From: Vulcanimicrobiota bacterium
GTDB taxonomy: Bacteria > Vulcanimicrobiota > Xenobia > Xenobiales > JADMJV01
Length of the DNA: 64,000 nt
Assembly: GCA_050250895.1 (NCBI GenBank)
Contig: JBFWNU010000002.1
Span: 823,659 to 887,658, forward strand
Reading direction: 5' to 3'
How positions within the stretch are numbered: position 1 is the first letter of the stretch; each line of letters opens with the position of its first letter. Made by a program: the position numbers and the translations under genes. Of the stretch, positions 50,435 to 60,468 are shown in pieces. The notes beneath the pieces were generated by a model. It saw only the letters and a list, made by a program, of their open reading frames with translations, had not been told where the DNA came from and searched no databases.

Positions 50435-51361
50435 TCAGCGAAACGAGCTGAAAAAGATCCAGATCTCGTCCGCCGCATTGAGGTCGCGACTGACTTCTCC
50501 TACCATCGAGACCGGCAGATACTGCGGGCCCGAGGGCCATGTGTGGCCGCCGTTCTTGATCTCGTAGAGCACGACCGGAGCTCCTTTGGATGAAGGCCAA
50601 CTGGTGCGGGTGACCGAGGTGTTATCGCCGGGAGCGTCGATGGCCCGCACCGAATCGGGTGACTGCGAACAGCCGTTGCGACGGCGGAAGATGGCCAGGG
50701 TTTTCTCGGTCGAGAGCACGGCGTCGCGATCTCGGCCCAAGATGCGAATCATGCCGCCCTGATAGGGCACCAGCGGGTCCCCCGTGCCGTTGAAGACGGC
50801 CAGCCCCACCGGGGGGCCGTCGGTGCAGTCGTCTTCGAGATAGCCAGGCAAAGGCATGGTGACCGGTGCCACCGCGCGAAAGACGCCCGGCAGCTTGCCC
50901 ACCAGGAAGTAGCAGGCCTGTCCACCGCGCGAGATGCCAGTGGCAAAGATCCGACGCGAGTCGATAGGAGCCACACTCTGGACTTGTTCGAGCACCGTCT
51001 TGAAATAGGCCAGGTCATCGTTGGGATTCTCGATGCTGGCCGAGATTTCGCCCTCGCCGAAGTTCCAGAGTTTCTCGCCCCCGGCCTCGGGATAGACCAC
51101 GTAGAAACCGTGCTGGTCAGCCAGCTGGTTGAAGCGATGCCCGGTCATGCGGACCATCTGGCGAGCCGTGCCCGAGCCTCCATGGATGACAAAAACTAGA
51201 GGTCGTGCCCCTTCCAGGGCGGCGGTCTGTTTCGGGGTGTAGAGCAGGTAGCGCCGGGTCACCCCAGCCTGGTCGAAGGTCTTTTCGTGCAGCCCCGGCC
51301 GGGCCGCCGCCAGCCCGCTGGCCAGTAGCAGCCAGGCCAGCAACCATCTACCAGATGGCAT
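50435..51361 (-). CDS. Secreted alpha/beta hydrolase (LpqC / PHB depolymerase-like esterase)
   Basis: PLVFVIHGG, GISRGG nucleophile elbow, GTGDPLVP, GGHTWP. Confidence 0.85.
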   Translation of the reverse strand: MPSGRWLLAWLLLASGLAAARPGLHEKTFDQAGVTRRYLLYTPKQTAALEGARPLVFVIHGGSGTARQMVRMTGHRFNQLADQHGFYVVYPEAGGEKLWNFGEGEISASIENPNDDLAYFKTVLEQVQSVAPIDSRRIFATGISRGGQACYFLVGKLPGVFRAVAPVTMPLPGYLEDDCTDGPPVGLAVFNGTGDPLVPYQGGMIRILGRDRDAVLSTEKTLAIFRRRNGCSQSPDSVRAIDAPGDNTSVTRTSWPSSKGAPVVLYEIKNGGHTWPSGPQYLPVSMVGEVSRDLNAADEIWIFFSSFR

Positions 51362-53357
51362 TGCGGCGCTCGCCCTCGCGTAGCATCGGGCTGCCGGGCG
51401 GGATCTTGAAGGCCTGCTCGAATTCGGGCAGGTTCGACAGCGGTCCGTTGACCCGATAGCGAGGGTGGGGATGGGGGTCGGTGTTGACCTGCAGGCGCTC
51501 GTATTCGGGGCGCATGTTCATAGCCCAGACGCGGGCGTAGGCCAGGAAGAATCGCTGCTCGGGATTGAACTTGCCGCTGCGATCGGGAGGGTTTTTCTGC
51601 CAGGCCTTCTGCAGGGCGCGATAGGCCAGCTTGAGTCCGCCCAGGTCGGCGATGCTCTCGCCCACCACCAGTTTGCCGTTGATGTGCAGGTTATCGGCCA
51701 CGGTGTATTCGTCGAACTGCTTGACGATGCGTTCGGCCAGACCTTCGAAGCGCAACTTGTCGTCGTCGGTCCACCAGTTTTCCAGGTTGCCTTTGGCGTC
51801 GTACTTGGAGCCCTGGTCGTCAAAACCGTGAGTTAACTCATGGCCGATGACCATGCCCAGGGCCCCGTAGTTAAGGGCGTCGTCGTAGTCGTTCGAGAAG
51901 AAGGGAGGCTGGAGAATGCCGGCCGGGAACACGATCTCGTTAGAGGAGGGGTCGTAGTAGGCGTTGACCGTCTGGGGGGTCATATACCACTCGTTGGGGT
52001 CGACCGGTTTGCCGATCTTGGCCAGGTCGCGAGCCACCTCGAAGGCCTGGGCGGCCAGAGCGTTCTCGGCATAGGCCCCGGGCTTGATGGTCAGGCTGGA
52101 ATAGTCGCGCCACTGATCGGGGTAGCCGATCTTCTGGCGGATGGCCTGGAGCTTCTCGACCGCCTTGAGGCGGGTAGCCGGGCTCATCCACTCGAGGGTT
52201 TCGAGGTCTTCGCGTAGGGCCGCCCGCAGGTTGGCGATCAGCTCTTCGACGCGGACTTTGGCTTCGGGGGGGAACTTGCGGGCCACGAACTTTTTGCCCA
52301 AAGCCATGCCGATGGCGCCATCGGTGGCTGCCACCACCCGCTTCCAGCGCGGTTGCATCTTCTCGGCGCCGGTCAGGGCCTTGCCGTAGAAGTTGAAGGT
52401 CGCTGTCTCGAACGGCTCGGCCAGGCTGGGCGCTTGACTGTGGACCAGGTGCCAGCGCAGGTAGGTCTTATGGGTCTCGATGGGAGTCTGGGTCAGGGCT
52501 GCGTCGAGCGCCTTGAAGAAGTCGGGGGTGGCCACGTTGAGCCACTCGATTTCGACGCCCATCCGTTGAAAATAGGTGGCCCAGTCGAAATGGGGGCTGA
52601 CTGCCTTCAGTTCGGCCAGGGTCTTGGGGTTGTAGGTCGCTTCGGGGTCGCGCAGGGCCACCCGTGTCATCGAGTCTTTGGCCAGTTTGCTTTCGAAATC
52701 ATAGACATAAGAGCTGTCGTGGGCCGAGCCCTGGGCCGAAGGACCCATCAGATTGAACATAGTGACCAGGTGGCCCTGATAACCCGAGCGGATCTTCCGG
52801 GACGCCTCATCGTCGCGAAAGTAGTAATCGCGATCAGGCAGTCCCAGCCCGCCTTGCGAAAGTTGGCCGATGACTTTCGAGCTGTCTTTCGAGTCTTGCA
52901 CGGCGCCGAAGTTGAAATAAACCCATACGCCCATCGAGTGGAGGCGGGCGACCTCGGCTTGCAGACTCGCCTGGTCGGTGATGGCCTCGATGCGAGCCAA
53001 CTCGTCGGCCAGCGGCTTGAGGCCGGCGGCGTTGATGGCTTTGGTGTCCATCCCCGAGGCGTAGAAATCGGCCAGTTTCTGCTCTTCTGAGCCCGGGGCG
53101 GGATTTTGCCTTCCGAGTTCTTCGAGAATCTCGCGACAGACCGCTTGATTGTTCTCGGCCAGCACGTTGAAAGTGCCCCAGCGGGGGCGGTCCGAGGGAA
53201 TCGGATTGCGCTTCATCCAGCCGCCGTTGGCGTACAGATAGAAATTCTCGGCCGGCGACACGGTAGTGTCCATGTCGGCCGGGTCGAGCCCGGTGGGTGG
53301 GGCTGCCCAGGCGGGCAGACAGCAAAGAATGGCCAGGGCCAGGAACAGTCGTTTCAT
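51348..53357 (-). CDS. Secreted M13-family (neprilysin/PepO-like) zinc metallopeptidase
   Basis: VNAYY, PAGILQPPFF, HELTHGFDD, GESIADLGG. Confidence 0.95.
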   Translation of the reverse strand: MKRLFLALAILCCLPAWAAPPTGLDPADMDTTVSPAENFYLYANGGWMKRNPIPSDRPRWGTFNVLAENNQAVCREILEELGRQNPAPGSEEQKLADFYASGMDTKAINAAGLKPLADELARIEAITDQASLQAEVARLHSMGVWVYFNFGAVQDSKDSSKVIGQLSQGGLGLPDRDYYFRDDEASRKIRSGYQGHLVTMFNLMGPSAQGSAHDSSYVYDFESKLAKDSMTRVALRDPEATYNPKTLAELKAVSPHFDWATYFQRMGVEIEWLNVATPDFFKALDAALTQTPIETHKTYLRWHLVHSQAPSLAEPFETATFNFYGKALTGAEKMQPRWKRVVAATDGAIGMALGKKFVARKFPPEAKVRVEELIANLRAALREDLETLEWMSPATRLKAVEKLQAIRQKIGYPDQWRDYSSLTIKPGAYAENALAAQAFEVARDLAKIGKPVDPNEWYMTPQTVNAYYDPSSNEIVFPAGILQPPFFSNDYDDALNYGALGMVIGHELTHGFDDQGSKYDAKGNLENWWTDDDKLRFEGLAERIVKQFDEYTVADNLHINGKLVVGESIADLGGLKLAYRALQKAWQKNPPDRSGKFNPEQRFFLAYARVWAMNMRPEYERLQVNTDPHPHPRYRVNGPLSNLPEFEQAFKIPPGSPMLREGERRNAIW

Positions 53358-53404: not shown

Positions 53405-53602
53405 CTAGTCAGACCATCCCAGAGGCTGGCCTCGATGGCCCGGCCGTTCGACAGCCACGGCCGTGGGGGGCTGTGGCGCCGGGGCCCGTCGCGACAACAA
53501 GACGGTCAGGGGCGGGGCGGCGGGTGGACCGCTGACCAGCGGTGGCGAGGCCAGGGCTAGCAGGGTCAACAAGGTAAGAAGCCAGGCGGCGCGCTGTTTC
53601 AT
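53405..53602 (-). CDS. Small secreted or membrane-bound Pro-rich peptide
   Basis: ATGA overlap with the upstream gene; signal-like MKQRAAWLLTLLTLLALA. Confidence 0.45.
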   Translation of the reverse strand: MKQRAAWLLTLLTLLALASPPLVSGPPAAPPLTVLLSRRAPAPQPPTAVAVERPGHRGQPLGWSD

Positions 53603-54903
53603 GGAGTGAGGTCTCCGGCCAGCACGCCATGCGGGGTGCCGATGAGGAACTGGCCACTGTCGTTGAGGGCCAGCACTTCGTCGGGTCGCAGCACGCGATT
53701 ACCCGCTTTGAGCACGAAAGCGCTGCCGTCGTTGACGTTACCGGTGACCACCCCCGACGAGGTGCCGATTAGGAAGGTTCCGTCTTCGCGCAGCACGGCG
53801 CTGATGTTCTGGATGTGGCCGTCGCCGGGCATGTCGTCATAGCCGTCTTCGTCCACGCCATTGTTGGCATAAAGCTTGTGACCGTCGAGCTTGACCAGGG
53901 TCACCTCGTCACGCGAGGCGTCACCGCGCACCACCCCTGAGAGAGTGCCGGCCACGAACTGGCCGTTCTCGTTGAGGTCCATTCCTTCGTCGGCTCGCAC
54001 CGTCTTGCCGTCAAGCTTCACCAGGCTGGTCTGGCCACCCACCTCGCCGCGAATCAGGCCGGGGCCGGTGCCGGCGATGAACTGGCCTTGATTGTTGAGC
54101 TGTACTTCATCGTCAGCCCAGACCTTGCGGCCATCAAGTTGAACCAGCCTGGTCCCACCGTCGATATGGCCCTCGACCAGGCCGCGGGTGGTGCCAGCCA
54201 CGAACTGGCCGCGGTCGTTCAAGTCCAGACCATCGTCGACCTTGAGCGTCTTGCCGTCGAGGGTCACCAGGTGGGCCTCGCCCTGGGCCACCTGGCCGGT
54301 GACCAGACCCTGCAGCGCGCCCGCCAGGAAATGGCCCGAATCGTTGACGTCAAAGCCCTCGTCGGCGAAGGCCGTCCGCCCGTCGAGCTTGAGAAAGCGG
54401 GCCTGGCCGGTAGTGAGGTCGCCCACCACGATGCCGCGGTTGGTGCCCACGATGAACTGGCCCTTCTCGTTGATGGCCGAGCCGCCGTCCGAGCGAAGGT
54501 CCTTGCCCTCGACCCGCAACAGATGCTGGCTGCCGGCCTGGTTGAGGTTGCCGACCACGATGCCCTGAATGGTGCCGACCACGAACTGGCCTTGGGAGTT
54601 GACGGCCCCTCCTTCATTGGCGAACAGCTTGTGCCCGTCAAGCTCGAGAAAGTGCCCGGTGGCCGTGCCTTCGGGAGCTTCCGGCAGGGCGATCTGGATC
54701 GAGGGCTGGTTGCTGGCGGTGCACCCGGCCACTGAAGTCACCGCTACCAGCCCCAGCAACGCCGCTCCCCACAACGACTTGGGGGAATGGGCGGGGGTCG
54801 GGTCCTGGGTGAAGTTGTCCAGCGAGGGAGCTTCTTCGGTTGGGACGGTGGCGGAGCGAACTCCGGGAGGGGCGGCATGGCGGACGGAACTCAACTTCTG
54901 CAT
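53599..54903 (-). CDS. Eight-repeat beta-propeller protein, possible lipoprotein
   Basis: Eight repeats of about 41 aa, consensus LDGKxxxADxGxxLNxxGQFxxGTxxGxxxG; internal hydrophobic helix ending VAGC. Confidence 0.75.
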   Translation of the reverse strand: MQKLSSVRHAAPPGVRSATVPTEEAPSLDNFTQDPTPAHSPKSLWGAALLGLVAVTSVAGCTASNQPSIQIALPEAPEGTATGHFLELDGHKLFANEGGAVNSQGQFVVGTIQGIVVGNLNQAGSQHLLRVEGKDLRSDGGSAINEKGQFIVGTNRGIVVGDLTTGQARFLKLDGRTAFADEGFDVNDSGHFLAGALQGLVTGQVAQGEAHLVTLDGKTLKVDDGLDLNDRGQFVAGTTRGLVEGHIDGGTRLVQLDGRKVWADDEVQLNNQGQFIAGTGPGLIRGEVGGQTSLVKLDGKTVRADEGMDLNENGQFVAGTLSGVVRGDASRDEVTLVKLDGHKLYANNGVDEDGYDDMPGDGHIQNISAVLREDGTFLIGTSSGVVTGNVNDGSAFVLKAGNRVLRPDEVLALNDSGQFLIGTPHGVLAGDLTP

Positions 54904-55056: not shown

Positions 55057-55971
55057 CTACCACGCGTGCCCGGCCATCAGCATCGAGGCCAGGGCTTCGC
55101 TGATCGGTTGTCCGGTTCGGTTTTCATACCAGCCGTAGGCCGGGGAGGGGTTGACCTCAAAGCAGCACACCTCGCCCTCGGGAGTGAAGCGAAGGTCGAG
55201 CCCGGCCAACGGCAACTCGAGGCGTCGGGCCAGGTTCTGGCAGCGTTCAGCCAGCTCGGCGGGAAGGTCCCAGGCCACGATCTCGGACTCTTTGTCATAG
55301 CGATAATCACTCTTCTGCGACTCGATCCGCGAGGCGAAGACACCGTGGTTGCCGACCACATGGACCCGCACGTCAAAGCCCGGCACATAGCTCTGCAGCT
55401 GCAAAGGGCAGTATTGCAGTTGCTCGAGTCGATCCAGATCTTGTTCTTGCAGCTTCTGCACGATCGAGCGCTGGTAGCTGATCGATTTGAAGATGACCTC
55501 GCCCTCTTGCTCTTCGTAAAAGAAGCGAGCCTGCTGGTCGCGGTTGGTCACCACCGTGGCGGGCACAGCCAGGCCCGCTTCGGCGATGAGGCGAATCTGA
55601 TAAGGCTTGCTGGCGTTGGAACTGGCCGCCCGCGGCCGGTTGACCACCAGACCCGGAAAGTTGTTGAGCCAGCCCACCAGGGCCGACTGGCACTGATGGT
55701 TGACGTGCACGACCTCCTCGTCGCTGTACTCTTCATAGACTTGAAAGTTCGAGAAGCCGACGCGATGATAGATAGCCCGAATGCGGCTGCACGCGATCCG
55801 CTCGCCACCCAGCAGAAAGGCATCCTGTTCAGGCGTCGAGCCGAAAGCGAGACGAATCTCGCCGGGGATGTCGTGCACCGAAAAGAACATCGATTCTGCC
55901 CCGGCCGCCGACAAGGCCTCGGCGATGCCGACACCCATCGGGTCTTCGGGCGAAGAGATGACCAGGATCAC
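55057..55971 (-). CDS. ATP-grasp ligase (RimK / MvdC-MvdD-like), catalytically intact
   Basis: MILVISSPED start (GTGA coupling), NASKPYQ, GLAVPATVVTN, VIFKSIS, LQSYVPGFDVRVHVVG, DYRY, GLDLR, FEVNPSP. Confidence 0.9.
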   Translation of the reverse strand: MILVISSPEDPMGVGIAEALSAAGAESMFFSVHDIPGEIRLAFGSTPEQDAFLLGGERIACSRIRAIYHRVGFSNFQVYEEYSDEEVVHVNHQCQSALVGWLNNFPGLVVNRPRAASSNASKPYQIRLIAEAGLAVPATVVTNRDQQARFFYEEQEGEVIFKSISYQRSIVQKLQEQDLDRLEQLQYCPLQLQSYVPGFDVRVHVVGNHGVFASRIESQKSDYRYDKESEIVAWDLPAELAERCQNLARRLELPLAGLDLRFTPEGEVCCFEVNPSPAYGWYENRTGQPISEALASMLMAGHAW

Positions 55972-56837
55972 GGCTTGCCCTCCAACAACTCGGCCACGGC
56001 CGAGCGCACCGTCTCGTGAGATAGGGCCGCCAGGCTGGGAAAGCTCTGCAGCGAGCCCACCTGCCACTGCCCGTCGTGACCCCGTCGCAGGTTGAATTCG
56101 CCCAGATTCAGCTCGAGACTGCGGGCTAGGTCAAGACAGGCCTCTTGCAGTTGCGCGGGTGGCTCGGCTTCGCCTACGAACAAGCCTTCTTCACCCACCA
56201 CACACAGGGCGCCGGCCCCCGGCCACGGCTCGGCCTCGAAATGAATCGGGGCCAGCGGCAACCGCTCGAGCAGCTCGAGTTGGTCCTCTTCCATGGCCGT
56301 GAAGTGGCTGCCGGGGTCGCCCACCTGGCGATAGATGATGCGCCCCTGGTGGTGCCGATGAAAGTCGCGAGCCGCCTCAGGATCCGAGGTCACCAGCATC
56401 TCGGGCACCGGCAACCCGGCCGCGCTGACCGTGCGCATGGTCGACCAGCGCGTTCCCCAGGTATCAGGCCGGCGAAAAAAGTTGGCCATCAGGGCCGTGT
56501 CCGACAGTTGGTCGAACATGGCGATGAGGGTGGCCCACTCTTCGAGCTGAATGTAACCGCGATCTTGCTCTGAAAAGCCCTCCAGGCTTTCGGGGGGCAC
56601 AAAGAAATGGTCCATGCAAACCGCCGACACTGTCGAGAAAGGCAGCACGCCCCCATCGGGCAGATAGACCAGGCTCGTGCCCGGGTCGGGCCCAAGATAG
56701 AGCGAGCATTCCGAGAAAAACTGCTCTTGAGTAAAGAACGCCACCGGTCGCCGTTGGCGATTGAGCAGCGTCTCGTAAAGAATGGCCAGACCCGGATGTT
56801 GAAGGGTCCCGTAGAACAGGACGCACGATTCTTGCAT
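55968..56837 (-). CDS. ATP-grasp-fold protein with a degenerate active site (probable pseudo-ligase)
   Basis: AGLPVPEMLVTSDPEAARDF and LERLPLAPIHFE align with the neighbour. Key positions differ: K to R (IIYR), no DVRV, DLR to NLR, EVNP to SLQS. Confidence 0.75.
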   Translation of the reverse strand: MQESCVLFYGTLQHPGLAILYETLLNRQRRPVAFFTQEQFFSECSLYLGPDPGTSLVYLPDGGVLPFSTVSAVCMDHFFVPPESLEGFSEQDRGYIQLEEWATLIAMFDQLSDTALMANFFRRPDTWGTRWSTMRTVSAAGLPVPEMLVTSDPEAARDFHRHHQGRIIYRQVGDPGSHFTAMEEDQLELLERLPLAPIHFEAEPWPGAGALCVVGEEGLFVGEAEPPAQLQEACLDLARSLELNLGEFNLRRGHDGQWQVGSLQSFPSLAALSHETVRSAVAELLEGKP

Positions 56838-56844
56838 TCAGAGG

Positions 56845-57780
56845 CTAGGCGAAGAAGCGGTTCGAGAGCGTCGTGACCGTCGGCTGCACGCGATTGAACA
56901 CTTCCAGGTCCTTTTCGCCGAGCTTCTCGTTTTCGATTTTGAAGGACTCTTTGGCCTCGAGGGATTTCTCGATATTGAGTTTCTCGGGATTCTTGTCGCC
57001 GAGCTTTTCATTCTCGGCTTTGAAGCTCTGCTTCTCGGCCTGCTTGTCGAGCAACTTATCGTTCTGGATAGCCTTCTCGTTGTATGACTTGTCACCGAGC
57101 TTCTCGTTTTCGGCCTTGAAGCTCTGCTTTTCGGCCTGCTTGTCGAGCAACTTATCGTTTTGGATAGCCTTTTCGTTGTATGACTTGTCACCGAGCTTTT
57201 CGTTTTCGGCCTTGAAGGTCTGCTTCTCGGCCTGCTTCTCGAGCAACTTATCGTTTTGGATAGCCTTTTCGTTGTATGACTTGTCACCGAGCTTTTCGTT
57301 TTCGGCCTTGAAGGTCTGCTTCTCGGCCTGTTTGTCACCCAGCTTCTCGTTGGTGACGGCCTTTTCATTGTAGGACTTGTCACCGAGTTTCTCGTTCTCG
57401 GCTTTGAAGGTCTGCTTTTCGATGCTCTGCTTTTCGATGGGCCCTTTTTCGAAGGACTGCTTATCGGCTTGCTTCTCGCCGAGCTTTTCGTTCTCGGCTT
57501 TGAACGAGAGCTTCTCGATATTCTTCTCTTGTCCCAATTTCTCGGGAGCGAACTTCTCGTGGGTGCCCTTCTCGGGTTGGCCCTTCTCGTAACCGAGCTT
57601 TTCGCTGGCGAATTTCTCAGGCTGCTTCTCGCTGCCGTGCTTGCAGAACGACTGCTGGAAGCCCGGCCCCTCGGTCGGCTTTCCGGCGGGTGCGGGGGCC
57701 GGTCCGCCGAGCGAGCGGATTGGGCCCTGGTGGGTGGTTAGCGCGGGACGAAACTGTGACGAGATGAACGGTTCTTTCAA
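56845..57780 (-). CDS. Lys/Glu/Asp-rich repeat protein; candidate multi-core precursor for the adjacent ATP-grasp ligases
   Basis: GGAGGAG RBS before TTG 57780 (MKEPFISSQF..., 311 aa); about 45 (D/E)K dipeptides; 7 nt upstream of the ATP-grasp gene. Confidence 0.8.
   Translation of the reverse strand: MKEPFISSQFRPALTTHQGPIRSLGGPAPAPAGKPTEGPGFQQSFCKHGSEKQPEKFASEKLGYEKGQPEKGTHEKFAPEKLGQEKNIEKLSFKAENEKLGEKQADKQSFEKGPIEKQSIEKQTFKAENEKLGDKSYNEKAVTNEKLGDKQAEKQTFKAENEKLGDKSYNEKAIQNDKLLEKQAEKQTFKAENEKLGDKSYNEKAIQNDKLLDKQAEKQSFKAENEKLGDKSYNEKAIQNDKLLDKQAEKQSFKAENEKLGDKNPEKLNIEKSLEAKESFKIENEKLGEKDLEVFNRVQPTVTTLSNRFFA
56993..57420 (-). repeat. 96-bp (32-aa) tandem repeat, about 4.4 copies
   Basis: Consensus KQ(T/S)FKAENEKLGDKSYNEKAIQNDKLL(D/E)KQAE; DNA copies differ mostly at synonymous sites. 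Confidence 0.9.
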
Positions 57781-57804
57781 AGTCGAAACTCCTCCGAATA
57801 CCAA

Positions 57805-58277: not shown

Positions 58278-58919
58278 ATGGACCCCGGGAAAAGGCGCTT
58301 CAAGACCGGCGTGACGCTGATCGAGCTCATTATCTACGCCGGCTTGAGCTTGCTGTTGCTGGGTCTGCTGTTTTATCTCTTGTGGCCCAGCGCCCGGGCC
58401 TCGGGGGTCGCCACCGCCAAGGTGCGCCTTCACCAGATGGCCACCAACGTCTTGACCAAGCTGGGCCGCGACCTGGCTACCAGCAATGCCTCGGCCGTTT
58501 CTTTGCTCGATTCGGCCGCGGCCCCCCAGCCCAATGGCCTGGCTCTGGTGCAAGCTCGGGGCCTGACGGCCAGTGGCCAGACCAGCTGGCAGACCGAAGC
58601 CATCTGCTATCTGTTCTTGCCGGAGCAGGGCCGCGTGGTGCGCCAACTTTGCCCCCCCGAGCCGCCCTCGGTCGTTTTTCTGGCCTCGCGGCCGGCGCTG
58701 CTCTCGGCCTCTGACCTGCTGGCGGTGGCCCAAAACTCCAACCAGACCCGCCGCACGTTGGCCCAGCAGGTTACCCGCTTCGAGGTCTTTCACGAGGGCG
58801 ACACCCGAGCCAGGGTGGTCTCGCCCCTGCGGGTGCGCATTCGCCTCGAAGCCGATGTGCCCGGCCGCACCGCCCCGGAGGTTTTCGAACTGGAGCGAAC
58901 CTTTGCGCTGCGCGATTAA
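58278..58919 (+). CDS. Prepilin-like protein (PilW / GspJ type)
   Basis: KTG-VTLIELIIY N-methylation motif. Confidence 0.75.
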   Translation: MDPGKRRFKTGVTLIELIIYAGLSLLLLGLLFYLLWPSARASGVATAKVRLHQMATNVLTKLGRDLATSNASAVSLLDSAAAPQPNGLALVQARGLTASGQTSWQTEAICYLFLPEQGRVVRQLCPPEPPSVVFLASRPALLSASDLLAVAQNSNQTRRTLAQQVTRFEVFHEGDTRARVVSPLRVRIRLEADVPGRTAPEVFELERTFALRD

Positions 58920-60468
58920 GATTGTCTTGCTGATGGGACTGCTCTGGGCGGGGGCCACCGCCGAGGTTCGCGACCTGATGATCGTGGCTGTCGACACCCA
59001 GGGCAAGAACTTGCGCGCCGAGCTCTATCTCAAGGCCGAGGGCTTCGAGTTGCTCGGTCCCAGCGGGCGGGCCTATGCGGTCGAGATGGACCCGTTCACT
59101 CTCAAGAATGGACAGGTTCGCCTGCGGGTGGGCCTGATCCATCCAGACTACATCGGTCTCTATGAAGAGATCGACTTTCGTCGCGGGGTGCCCGTCAAGC
59201 TCAAGATGGTGCCGCGCATTCGCCGTTTCGAGTTGCAGACCGATCCCCCCGATGCCCGGGTTCGCTCCCAACAGGGCTTTCTCGAGCGGCAGCCGGATGG
59301 CTCGCTGGAGCTCGACCCGGCCGCTTACCTTCCCCTGGCCGGGCGGGCCGGTGGCGAGCCTGTCTATCAACGCGCCCCCGCCGAGTTGACCCTCGAGGCC
59401 GACGGCTACGAACCGACCAGCCTGATCATCGAGCCCGAGCAGTGGGCCACCGGTCAGCTGGGCTCGGTGGCCCTACCCGCCGCCCGCGGTCTGGGGCCCT
59501 TCCTGACCCGCCTGCGTCACTCTCCTGGCCCGCTGCTGCTGGTGTTGACCTTGCTTGGGCTGGGCGCTCTCAAAGCTCGTCAGCTGGCCGCCAGGGCGCG
59601 TCTGGCCGAGCAACTCGAGAGCCTGCGCGCCGATGGTAGCGATCCCCTGGCCGGAGCCGAACTCGGTGGCTATCGGCTGGCCGAGCAGTTGGGCCAGGGG
59701 GGCGCGGCTGCCGTCTATCTAGGCTATCCGGCCGCCAGCCTTGACCTGAGCAAGCCCGTGGCCGTCAAGGTCGTGCACCGCCAGTTGGCCCAGGATCCCG
59801 ATTTTCTCCAGCGCTTCTATCGCGAGGTCGAGGTGAGCGGTTCGCTGGTCCACGCCAACATCGTCGAACTCAAAGACTATGGCAACCAGGACGGGCAACT
59901 CTATCTGGTGTTGGAATACCTCAAAGGTACTTCCCTGCGGGATAAGGTTCGGGCCGGCCTGCCCCTCGCCCAGGTGATGGACTACCTTCGTCCGGTGGCC
60001 AAAGCCCTGATTTACGCCCACCAGCAAGGCGTGACCCATCGCGACCTCAAGCCCGAGAACATCATGGTGACCGAGCACGGTCTCAAAGTGATGGATTTCG
60101 GCTTTGCCAAGAAGCACAACGCCTCGACCATTACGGCCACCGGATTCATCTTCGGCACCCCGGCCTATCTGCCACCCGAGCAGGCCCGAGGCGAGGTCTG
60201 TGCGGCCACCGACCAGTATGCCTTCGGAGTGCTGGCCTTCGAGCTGTTCACCGGTCGCTTGCCCTTTGAAGCCGAAGAACCGTTGGCTCTGGTGATGCAG
60301 CACATGAGCGACCCGCCGCCCAGCCCGCGCGACTTTCGCCCCGACCTCTCGATCGAAGTCGAGGCCGTCGTGCTCAAACTGCTGGCCAAAGACCCCGAAG
60401 ACCGTTATCCCTCGATGAGCCAGGCCTGGCAGGCGCTCGAAGAGGCTAGTGGGCTTTCCACAGCCTGA
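58903..60468 (+). CDS. Ser/Thr protein kinase with an N-terminal extracytoplasmic PEGA-like region
   Basis: Signal-like N-terminus, LQTDPPDARV, TM, LGQGGAAAVY, VAVK, HRDLKPEN, DFG, GTPAYLPPEQ; start uncertain. Confidence 0.88.
   Translation: MRCAIKIVLLMGLLWAGATAEVRDLMIVAVDTQGKNLRAELYLKAEGFELLGPSGRAYAVEMDPFTLKNGQVRLRVGLIHPDYIGLYEEIDFRRGVPVKLKMVPRIRRFELQTDPPDARVRSQQGFLERQPDGSLELDPAAYLPLAGRAGGEPVYQRAPAELTLEADGYEPTSLIIEPEQWATGQLGSVALPAARGLGPFLTRLRHSPGPLLLVLTLLGLGALKARQLAARARLAEQLESLRADGSDPLAGAELGGYRLAEQLGQGGAAAVYLGYPAASLDLSKPVAVKVVHRQLAQDPDFLQRFYREVEVSGSLVHANIVELKDYGNQDGQLYLVLEYLKGTSLRDKVRAGLPLAQVMDYLRPVAKALIYAHQQGVTHRDLKPENIMVTEHGLKVMDFGFAKKHNASTITATGFIFGTPAYLPPEQARGEVCAATDQYAFGVLAFELFTGRLPFEAEEPLALVMQHMSDPPPSPRDFRPDLSIEVEAVVLKLLAKDPEDRYPSMSQAWQALEEASGLSTA

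Follow-up and report, generated by a model that had tools for sequence, protein, structure and literature searches.

The 64,000-nucleotide stretch of DNA from a Vulcanimicrobiota bacterium that was analysed here (the window; GenBank assembly GCA_050250895.1, contig JBFWNU010000002.1, positions 823,659 to 887,658) carries on its minus strand the gene of a graspetide-type ATP-grasp ligase and, directly upstream of it, the gene of a second ATP-grasp protein that we call the twin. Judged by its sequence, the twin is a conserved and selected paralog of the graspetide ligase and appears to be catalytically dead. We regard it as the best explanation, with a probability of roughly 0.6, that the twin serves as the non-catalytic half of an asymmetric ligase heterodimer whose substrate is a 319-amino-acid precursor with repeated Glu-Lys (EK) dipeptides. 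For this reading the homology, the catalytic losses, the fold, the selection and the gene order were computed and the heterodimer was modelled, while precursor docking, a contribution to repeated rounds of processing and the type of cross-link are inferred. The genes of precursor, twin and ligase are packed head to tail in this order, with the following features:

56845..57804, minus strand: putative precursor gene, 319 amino acids counted from a TTG, 33 EK dipeptides (list of open reading frames)
56992..57421, minus strand: tandem repeat in the precursor gene, 4.5 copies of a 96-nucleotide (32-amino-acid) unit (Tandem Repeats Finder)
56838..56844, minus strand: spacer of 7 nucleotides between the precursor stop TAG and the twin ATG (read from the sequence)
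55968..56837, minus strand: the twin, a putatively dead ATP-grasp paralog, 289 amino acids from an ATG start
55968..55971, minus strand: twin/ligase junction GTGA, in which the ligase GTG overlaps the twin TGA by 4 nucleotides, a signature of translational coupling (read from the sequence)
55057..55971, minus strand: graspetide ATP-grasp ligase, predicted to be active, 304 amino acids from a GTG (TIGR04187 and PsnB profile matches, catalytic motifs)

The start of the ligase was placed at the GTG at 55971 and not at 56067, where the longest open reading frame begins, because the orthologous ligases all begin with M-I-L-V at that position.

The twin as a degenerate homolog of the ligase

An earlier note on this DNA had described the twin as a full-length relative of the downstream ligase in which the positions for binding ATP and magnesium are replaced, and in all of these points the description is borne out. 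The open reading frame of the twin is full length, with no frameshift and zero internal stops. BLASTP aligned twin and ligase with 25% identity across 243 positions (E 1e-17), comparison of the two family profiles with hhalign gave an E-value of 1.1e-42 across 280 columns, and both pairs of segments quoted in the note were recovered (GLPVPEMLVTSD vs GLAVPATVVTNR; LERLPLAPIHFE vs LEQLQYCPLQLQ). Against TIGR04187 (ATP-grasp ribosomal peptide maturase) the ligase aligns from end to end with E 1.1e-43 and 149.6 bits, which is under the curated cut-off of 350; measured against the same cut-off the twin reaches 30.8 bits (E 1.6e-7), with only its residues 89-173 placed on model positions 84-166, and it matches no Pfam ATP-grasp family at E ≤1. 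Among solved structures, PsnB, the ATP-grasp macrocyclase of plesiocin, comes closest to both proteins (E 2.5e-19 for the twin profile and 5.5e-29 for the ligase, the latter to entry 7drm).

Residues of PsnB were mapped via alignments, in which the chain numbering of the Protein Data Bank (PDB) equals the numbering of the preprint plus 20 (10.1101/2021.03.09.434688). Every one of the substitutions named in the note is present in these alignments. The lysine of the ligase motif SKPYQ is an arginine in the window twin (TRWST), and so is the ATP-binding lysine of IFKS (IYRQ). The Asp/Glu/Asn triad that binds magnesium reads Asn, Ser and Gln (FEVNP to GSLQS). DVRV is replaced by an unrelated stretch in which the counterpart of Arg213, the arginine of this motif, is an alanine, and the stretch carrying DYR, which corresponds to the DFR loop, is deleted, leaving an alignment gap of 17-18 residues. 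According to the mutational part of the PsnB preprint, macrocyclization is lost when residues of the DFR loop are changed to alanine, and Arg213 is critical (10.1101/2021.03.09.434688).

The losses extend through the whole family of the twin. A word-indexed protein search identified 10 homologs at 32-84% identity (11 matches including the window protein, from 2096 candidates), and an exhaustive search returned 29 cluster representatives at E ≤1e-10 and 159 at E ≤1e-3. Residues were counted in a joint alignment of 41 twins and 12 partner ligases, with positions numbered after the window ligase. The DFR loop is missing in all 41 twins, and of the magnesium ligands D259 and N274 are each kept in a single twin and E272 in none. 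At the two positions that contact the ATP phosphates, the K122 column holds arginine in 40 twins and lysine in one, and the K162 column lysine in 24, arginine in 16 and glutamine in one. Arginine is found in the Arg213 column of 18/41 twins. The core-binding Arg72 of PsnB is replaced by aspartate in 34 twins, by glutamate and asparagine in three each and by alanine in one. All 12 partner ligases retain the DFR loop, the magnesium ligands, both lysines and the counterparts of Arg213 and Arg72, and all their catalytic motifs are invariant. The Arg72 counterpart in the window twin is D76 (codon at about 56610-56612), a reversal of charge under selection within the former active site.

The alignment indicates that the twin retains a hydrophobic leader-binding pocket of the PsnB type. 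The counterpart of Tyr171 is Tyr or Phe in 30/41 twins, that of Phe203 is Phe or Tyr in 38/41, and aliphatic residues occupy the positions of Ile193 (Leu, Ile or Val in 37/41), Leu196 (Leu, Ile or Val in 40/41) and Val201 (Val, Ile or Ala in 39/41). The Pro and the Glu that flank the pocket are present in all 41 twins, and the hinge Glu is invariant as well.

Decay of the homologs to pseudogenes would have spoken against a functional subunit, and the ratio of nonsynonymous to synonymous substitution rates (dN/dS) was determined for five pairs of genomes by the Nei-Gojobori method. The twin gave 0.07, 0.17, 0.07, 0.15 and 0.21 and the ligase, in the same order of pairs, 0.04, 0.25, 0.08, 0.19 and 0.17, the values of two pairs being rough with synonymous rates (dS) of 1.0-1.9. 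The twin is under purifying selection about as strong as that on the ligase and is not decaying. An AlphaFold2 model of the twin computed from the 41-row alignment reached a predicted local distance difference test score (pLDDT) of 91.5 and a predicted template modelling score (pTM) of 0.88. Foldseek matched this model to the PDB entries of PsnB, MdnC, AMdnB, CdnC, PruB and MdnB with query-normalised template modelling (TM) scores of 0.73-0.80 (0.76-0.78 for PsnB), and the alignments to PsnB, MdnC, AMdnB and CdnC (TM 0.74-0.80) span about 305-334 columns; RimK, LysX and ArgX follow in the ranking with TM scores of about 0.60. From the confidence of the model and these matches to graspetide ligases it therefore appears that the twin is not truncated and is a complete three-domain ATP-grasp fold, which according to the model includes the pre-ATP-grasp domain and has a shortened C-domain.

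The cassette, its precursor and a second dead-twin family

Among 61 related genomes, 18 have a match to the twin, and each of the 20 strong matches is followed directly downstream on the same strand by the ligase, which is the weaker match. The stop of the twin and the start of the ligase overlap by 4 nucleotides in all 12 loci first compared (GTGA in seven, ATGA in five), and the same pair was seen in 12 loci with longer flanks, six of them at new places. The K/E-rich open reading frame upstream matches the window precursor in nine of these longer loci (BLASTP). A Pfam scan of 55 neighbouring proteins (E ≤1e-5) found no family common to the loci, and neither an exporter nor any other conserved gene accompanies the cassette among the 12 larger loci compared and the 55 proteins scanned. 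The conserved unit is a three-gene cassette of precursor, twin and ligase. A pattern search from an 11-row alignment of twins located six named genome loci; the named records with the twin family are metagenome-assembled genomes labelled Candidatus Eremiobacteraeota, Candidatus Xenobia and Vulcanimicrobiota, and one labelled Burkholderiales. At one locus the cassette has decayed (L129:3513-4778), the twin being reduced to its last ~85 residues and the ligase split across three frames, so that both genes are broken.

Elsewhere in the phylum, in a distant family, a related ligase seemingly stands alone (L047:4117-4986, L048:2470-3186, L130:3886-4611). The open reading frame directly upstream of these ligases weakly resembles the N-terminal half of dead twins (E 8e-6 to 3e-4) and may, by this similarity, be a still more diverged twin. 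Because of this weak twin-like frame directly upstream, we rejected these loci as clean exceptions without a twin.

The window precursor has an N-terminal motif EPFISSQFRP, ends in LSNRFFA and has no start resembling a signal peptide. Tandem Repeats Finder reported a period of 96 for its gene, with 4.5 copies, 90% matches and zero indels, and the protein contains EKxxx pentads with Lys and Glu at i and i+4. The same spacing of Lys and acid at i and i+4 is described for the KxxxD lactams of corallotide in the consulted part of a recent study (PMC13097080). In the related loci a K/E-repeat open reading frame lies directly upstream of the twin. Among 19 such loci the N-terminal motif (M)(S/A)DLFIxxx(F/L)RP was found by regular expression in nine, several others being cut by the end of the locus, and a C-terminal RFF followed by 0-4 residues in 13, with RFL or RMF variants in two more; the precursors of L007 and L012, for example, end in ARFFA and SSRFF. 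The orthologous precursors are open reading frames of about 190-560 amino acids with 13-88 EK dipeptides between the two ends, often as EKxxx pentads. Because the substrates are long EK-repeat proteins without a signal-like start and the cassette lacks an exporter gene, the system suggests stapling of proteins inside the cell and not production of a small secreted peptide.

A second, more distant type of dead twin emerged from the exhaustive search, in which 14 of 98 weaker matches of 250-420 amino acids are likewise degenerate at catalytic positions. A scan of metagenomes with five of the distant degenerate proteins gave 336 pattern-matching stretches, of which 83 were confirmed and the best 80 kept (L049-L128). 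A ligase lies downstream of the second-family twin in 47 of the 49 metagenome loci with at least 600 nucleotides of downstream sequence; the full-length ligases at these loci score 247-288 bits on the hidden Markov model of the window ligase family, and the stop of the second-family twin reads ATGA or GTGA in 42/47. The order in these loci is twin, ligase, precursor (e.g. L052:3980-6372, L064:3992-6459), as opposed to precursor, twin, ligase in the window. The second-family precursor comprises 140-185 amino acids with a start of the form PFVS(Q/P)EDRPEV...ELRVR(D/E)L and a coiled-coil-like end (QVIQAVAGLTKQVxxLANQVEELRKK), and EK repeats are present in both precursors seen in full. A profile of 11 'degenerate' proteins, which included two ligase-like rows and mostly found the partner ligases again, was used only for locating tandem pairs.

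A tree was calculated from 98 rows, namely the 12 ligases, the 41 twins and, out of 84 other matches of 285-345 amino acids, the first 45 without the other 39. All 41 twins fall into a single clade with a support of 99 in the Shimodaira-Hasegawa-like approximate likelihood ratio test (SH-aLRT), and the partner ligases form a clade of their own, equally with 99. The twin clade joins six other degenerate proteins (SH-aLRT 96). In contrast to this grouping, the profile of the window twin matches its own partner ligases more strongly (E 1.1e-42) than the second dead family (E 1.9e-27, for an alignment of five rows). The dead twins may have arisen once or twice.

Predicted pairing with the ligase and its alternatives

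Structure prediction points to a heterodimer of twin and ligase. The complex reached interaction scores based on predicted aligned errors (ipSAE) of 0.90, 0.90 and 0.91, whereas three controls each gave 0.00; at least 97% of the contacts were common to the runs, and the pLDDT of the partner was 91. The mark applied to ipSAE was reached by 116/157 solved complexes and by 2/215 mismatched pairs, counts that are only rough since custom alignments were used. In the model the two chains meet pseudo-symmetrically. Through contacts at 95-110, twin helix 90-111 packs against residues 89-104 of the ligase, and strand 144-152 of the twin (VPEMLVTSD) lies against ligase residues 40-47, with the reverse pairing also present. 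In PsnB the centre of the dimer is formed by the helices alpha3 and alpha4, as stated in the structural part of the preprint (10.1101/2021.03.09.434688). The proposal of the earlier note that the twin is a pseudo-enzyme subunit thus finds computational support in the family-wide losses (DFR loop missing in 41/41), the purifying selection and the predicted heterodimer (ipSAE 0.90 vs 0.00).

We assume the following course of events. The twin would be derived from a graspetide ligase, would have kept a full three-domain ATP-grasp fold incapable of ligation, and would be made in a fixed ratio with the ligase encoded immediately downstream. Most likely it meets this ligase at the two-fold interface through which graspetide ligases usually dimerise, so that one subunit of the pair would be catalytic and the other not. 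The dead subunit probably uses its leader pocket to dock one or the other conserved end of the precursor and/or keeps the active subunit in a productive conformation, while the active subunit would install the cross-links. The preprint describes the PsnB dimer as turning asymmetric upon substrate binding, with the full complex of enzyme, ATP, leader and core in one subunit only (10.1101/2021.03.09.434688). By analogy, a non-catalytic chain that keeps fold, dimer contact and leader pocket would be a small evolutionary step from such an asymmetric dimer, and two docking motifs for two pockets would make an attractive fit, although this fit is inference only. A bolder version is possible and is offered tentatively. 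The twin could be the substrate-docking half of an obligate, hard-wired heterodimer. Of an EK-repeat protein of 200-570 amino acids, the N-terminal PF(I/V)S..RP would occupy one leader pocket and the C-terminal RFF that of the other subunit, and this tether would let the one active site staple dozens of KxxxE units processively; a large, cross-phylum clade of graspetide-type ligases (the twin family and the group-39 clusters discussed below) would then represent two-subunit protein-stapling machines and not homodimeric peptide cyclases.

Several observations weigh against the twin as a subunit of the ligase. The binding stands on a single structure-prediction job, and its ipSAE may merely reflect likeness to the solved homodimers of PsnB, MdnC, MdnB and CdnC. 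Conservation is not significantly enriched at the predicted interface, neither when interface and remaining residues of the twin are compared (Mann-Whitney p 0.12), nor in the share of the twin columns with at least 90% conservation that fall into it (8/23, Fisher p 0.053), nor in the ligase (p 0.73). The partner ligases retain a hydrophobic leader pocket of their own, so that a separate docking subunit is not obviously required, and the Lys or Arg at the ATP-phosphate positions (40/41 and 41/41 twins) makes nucleotide binding and a residual or different activity conceivable. A search of public sequencing runs with words from the cassette listed no RNA run and one DNA run with 5% of the sampled words.

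The most serious competitor of the heterodimer, which we nevertheless consider rather improbable, is a free-standing chaperone or recognition protein for the precursor that resembles a RiPP recognition element (RRE; RiPP, ribosomally synthesised and post-translationally modified peptide). Such a protein would act alone or as a homodimer and deliver the substrate to a ligase homodimer, and no stable heterodimer would arise. The retained residues of the leader pocket and the two conserved termini of the precursor would suit it, nothing that marks a self-sufficient homodimeric graspetide ligase is missing from the partner ligase, and the missing significance of interface conservation is what it would lead one to expect. 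It is opposed by the scores of the heterodimer model against those of the controls and by the gene overlaps (4 nucleotides at 12/12 loci, (A/G)TGA at 42/47 second-family loci), which are typical of equimolar subunits. Moreover, the modelled contact through helix 90-111 and the LVTS strand includes several of the most highly conserved residues, namely Y95, E99, W101, A102, P145, T150 and S151.

A twin with retained activity or a nucleotide-dependent role is unlikely. It would have to be an ATP/ADP sensor or switch without the classical magnesium ligands, or use residues at new places to catalyse another step. The basic residues at both ATP-phosphate positions and the invariant hinge Glu are in line with such a role, and the aspartate in place of the core-binding arginine in 34/41 twins hints at a function newly acquired under selection in the former catalytic centre. 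On the other hand, the magnesium ligands and the DFR loop are gone in essentially all members, and among the six tabulated distant members five have non-basic residues at both phosphate positions (e.g. YAR---EGN, VTA---VKH). If both dead-twin families share a role, that role therefore cannot need nucleotide binding.

We give very little credit to the twin as a protein for self-protection or product binding, or as a regulator that sequesters precursor or product and has nothing to do with catalysis. All that speaks for it is the general point that a dead enzyme still competent in binding can act as a decoy, whereas a biosynthetic subunit is the better match for the strict stop/start coupling and for a gene located between those of precursor and ligase, and the cassette comes without an exporter or other conserved gene. 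A decaying pseudogene left by a ligase duplication would account for the lost catalytic residues and is refuted by the low dN/dS, the confident model, the single well-supported clade of 41 homologs and an open frame of full length at every locus examined except the decayed one (L129), where neither gene is intact.

Neighbouring genes and relation to known systems

Three genes in the neighbourhood of the window cassette deserve mention:

53599-54903, minus strand: protein of 434 amino acids with a lipoprotein-like N-terminus (VAGCTAS) and ~10 repeats of a GQF(V/I)(A/V)GT...G(L/I)V(V/T)G unit
51348-53357, minus strand: M13 metallopeptidase gene, two genes downstream of the ligase
58573-60468, plus strand: Ser/Thr protein kinase gene beside the cassette

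The 434-amino-acid protein matches no Pfam family at E ≤1e-5 and has no counterpart in the other cassette loci. The genes downstream of the window ligase (the lipoprotein-like protein, the M13 peptidase, an esterase and UppP) have no homologs in the 12 other loci (BLASTP E ≤1e-4) and were on this ground rejected as parts of the system. Two Ser/Thr kinase genes also lie beside the cassette in one related locus (L017:4425-7147); possibly kinase genes near the cassette are a coincidence in kinase-rich genomes. In two distant loci an M54 (archaemetzincin-like) peptidase is encoded directly downstream of the ligase (L018:6431-7009, L019:6174-6740). These peptidase neighbours, together with the M13 peptidase of the window, recall the peptidases of unrelated families that the survey of Makarova et al. 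(2022), in the part consulted, links to its branches 7 and 8 (PMC8939145); they are not conserved across the twin family.

With PsnB, as characterised in the preprint, the window pair shares the three-domain fold, a dimer centred on alpha3-alpha4 and a hydrophobic leader pocket, and the PsnB holocomplex is confined to one subunit (10.1101/2021.03.09.434688). PsnB differs in being a homodimer of two competent chains, whereas the twin is devoid of the DFR loop, the equivalents of Arg213 and Arg72 and the magnesium ligands. The asymmetry would here be hard-wired in the genes, unlike in PsnB. The microviridin clusters with MdnB and MdnC resemble the cassette in having two adjacent paralogous ATP-grasp genes beside a precursor gene, but both of their ligases are active according to the pertinent part of the survey (PMC8939145), as opposed to one presumably dead and one active member in the window. 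This contrast, which had been drawn in the earlier note, holds also within the related genomes, where five microviridin-like tandem pairs (L041-L045, e.g. L041:610-3973) keep the ten checked positions in all ten proteins, that is, in both genes of each pair; their precursor of about 470 amino acids has repeated KYPSD/KFPSD cores. This group of genomes thus harbours both arrangements, the classical cluster with two active ligases and the pair of one dead and one active protein. A comparable division of labour is found in azoline RiPP pathways, where an inactive E1-like 'C protein' binds the leader and potentiates the YcaO cyclodehydratase; its fold and chemistry are different, and it is not a paralog of the catalytic subunit.

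The closest published description is a single sentence of the survey, which states for its branch 8 loci a truncated, catalytically inactive ATP-grasp protein consisting of the two N-terminal domains; the part of the survey concerned with it proposes no role for this protein (PMC8939145). Branch 8 and the window pair have in common a dead second ATP-grasp protein beside an active one and peptidase neighbours. They differ in that the window twin is full length with three domains in its model, whereas the branch 8 copy is truncated, and in that a precursor is evident here, whereas the survey considered only candidates of up to 150 amino acids and, in its account of this branch, predicted none (PMC8939145). 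Compared by description, the second dead-twin type is possibly the inactive ATP-grasp protein of branch 8.

A second point of contact is group 39 of Carter et al. (2026). The head of its Bradyrhizobium precursor (PFVS..DRP...ELRVRDL) equals that of the second-family precursors, and some group-39 precursors begin with EPFIDPQSRPDL or QPFITTDLRPDL, resembling EPFISSQFRP of the window (PMC13097080). One part of the supplementary table lists two adjacent synthetases for 21 of its 27 distinct clusters of group 39, which originate from Nitrospirota, Chloroflexota, Cyanobacteriota, Armatimonadota, Acidobacteriota and Pseudomonadota; the group is uncharacterised and is named in the main text, as far as consulted, only for a transglutaminase-fold protein (PMC13097080). 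Unlike in group 39, no transglutaminase family was detected among the 55 neighbouring proteins scanned at E ≤1e-5; moreover, the window twin family forms a separate clade and the window precursor comes first. By its precursor head motif the second dead-twin type matches group 39, a link that does not imply deadness of the second synthetases listed there.

Dependence of a graspetide ligase on another protein would have a parallel in MirB-MirC and CorB-CorC. In both, a partner that is encoded alongside the ligase and co-purifies with it is either required by the ligase or activates it, and the large precursor CorA repeats KxxxD lactam motifs whose spacing resembles that of KxxxE in the EK pentads of the window (PMC13097080). 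MirC and CorC, presented in 2026 in the sections consulted as the first partner-dependent graspetide systems, are however a SurA/peptidyl-prolyl isomerase-like protein and a 2-oxoglutarate oxygenase and not ligase paralogs (PMC13097080). Apart from the branch 8 sentence in the consulted part of the survey (PMC8939145), full-text searching of the literature revealed no paper on graspetide or ATP-grasp RiPP enzymes that also deals with pseudo-enzymes, inactive homologs or heterodimers. Surveys have catalogued pairings of this kind without characterising them, and the window pair adds a new form that is specific to its lineage.

To our knowledge, graspetide ligases have hitherto been regarded as self-sufficient homodimers. 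If the twin pairs with the ligase, the cassette would be a natural experiment on the asymmetry of PsnB-type enzymes that shows what a second, non-catalysing subunit contributes. Expression of such clusters, namely group 39 and its relatives from many soil phyla, may fail with the ligase alone, and genome-mining tools would predict the wrong chemistry if they scored the twin as another synthetase.

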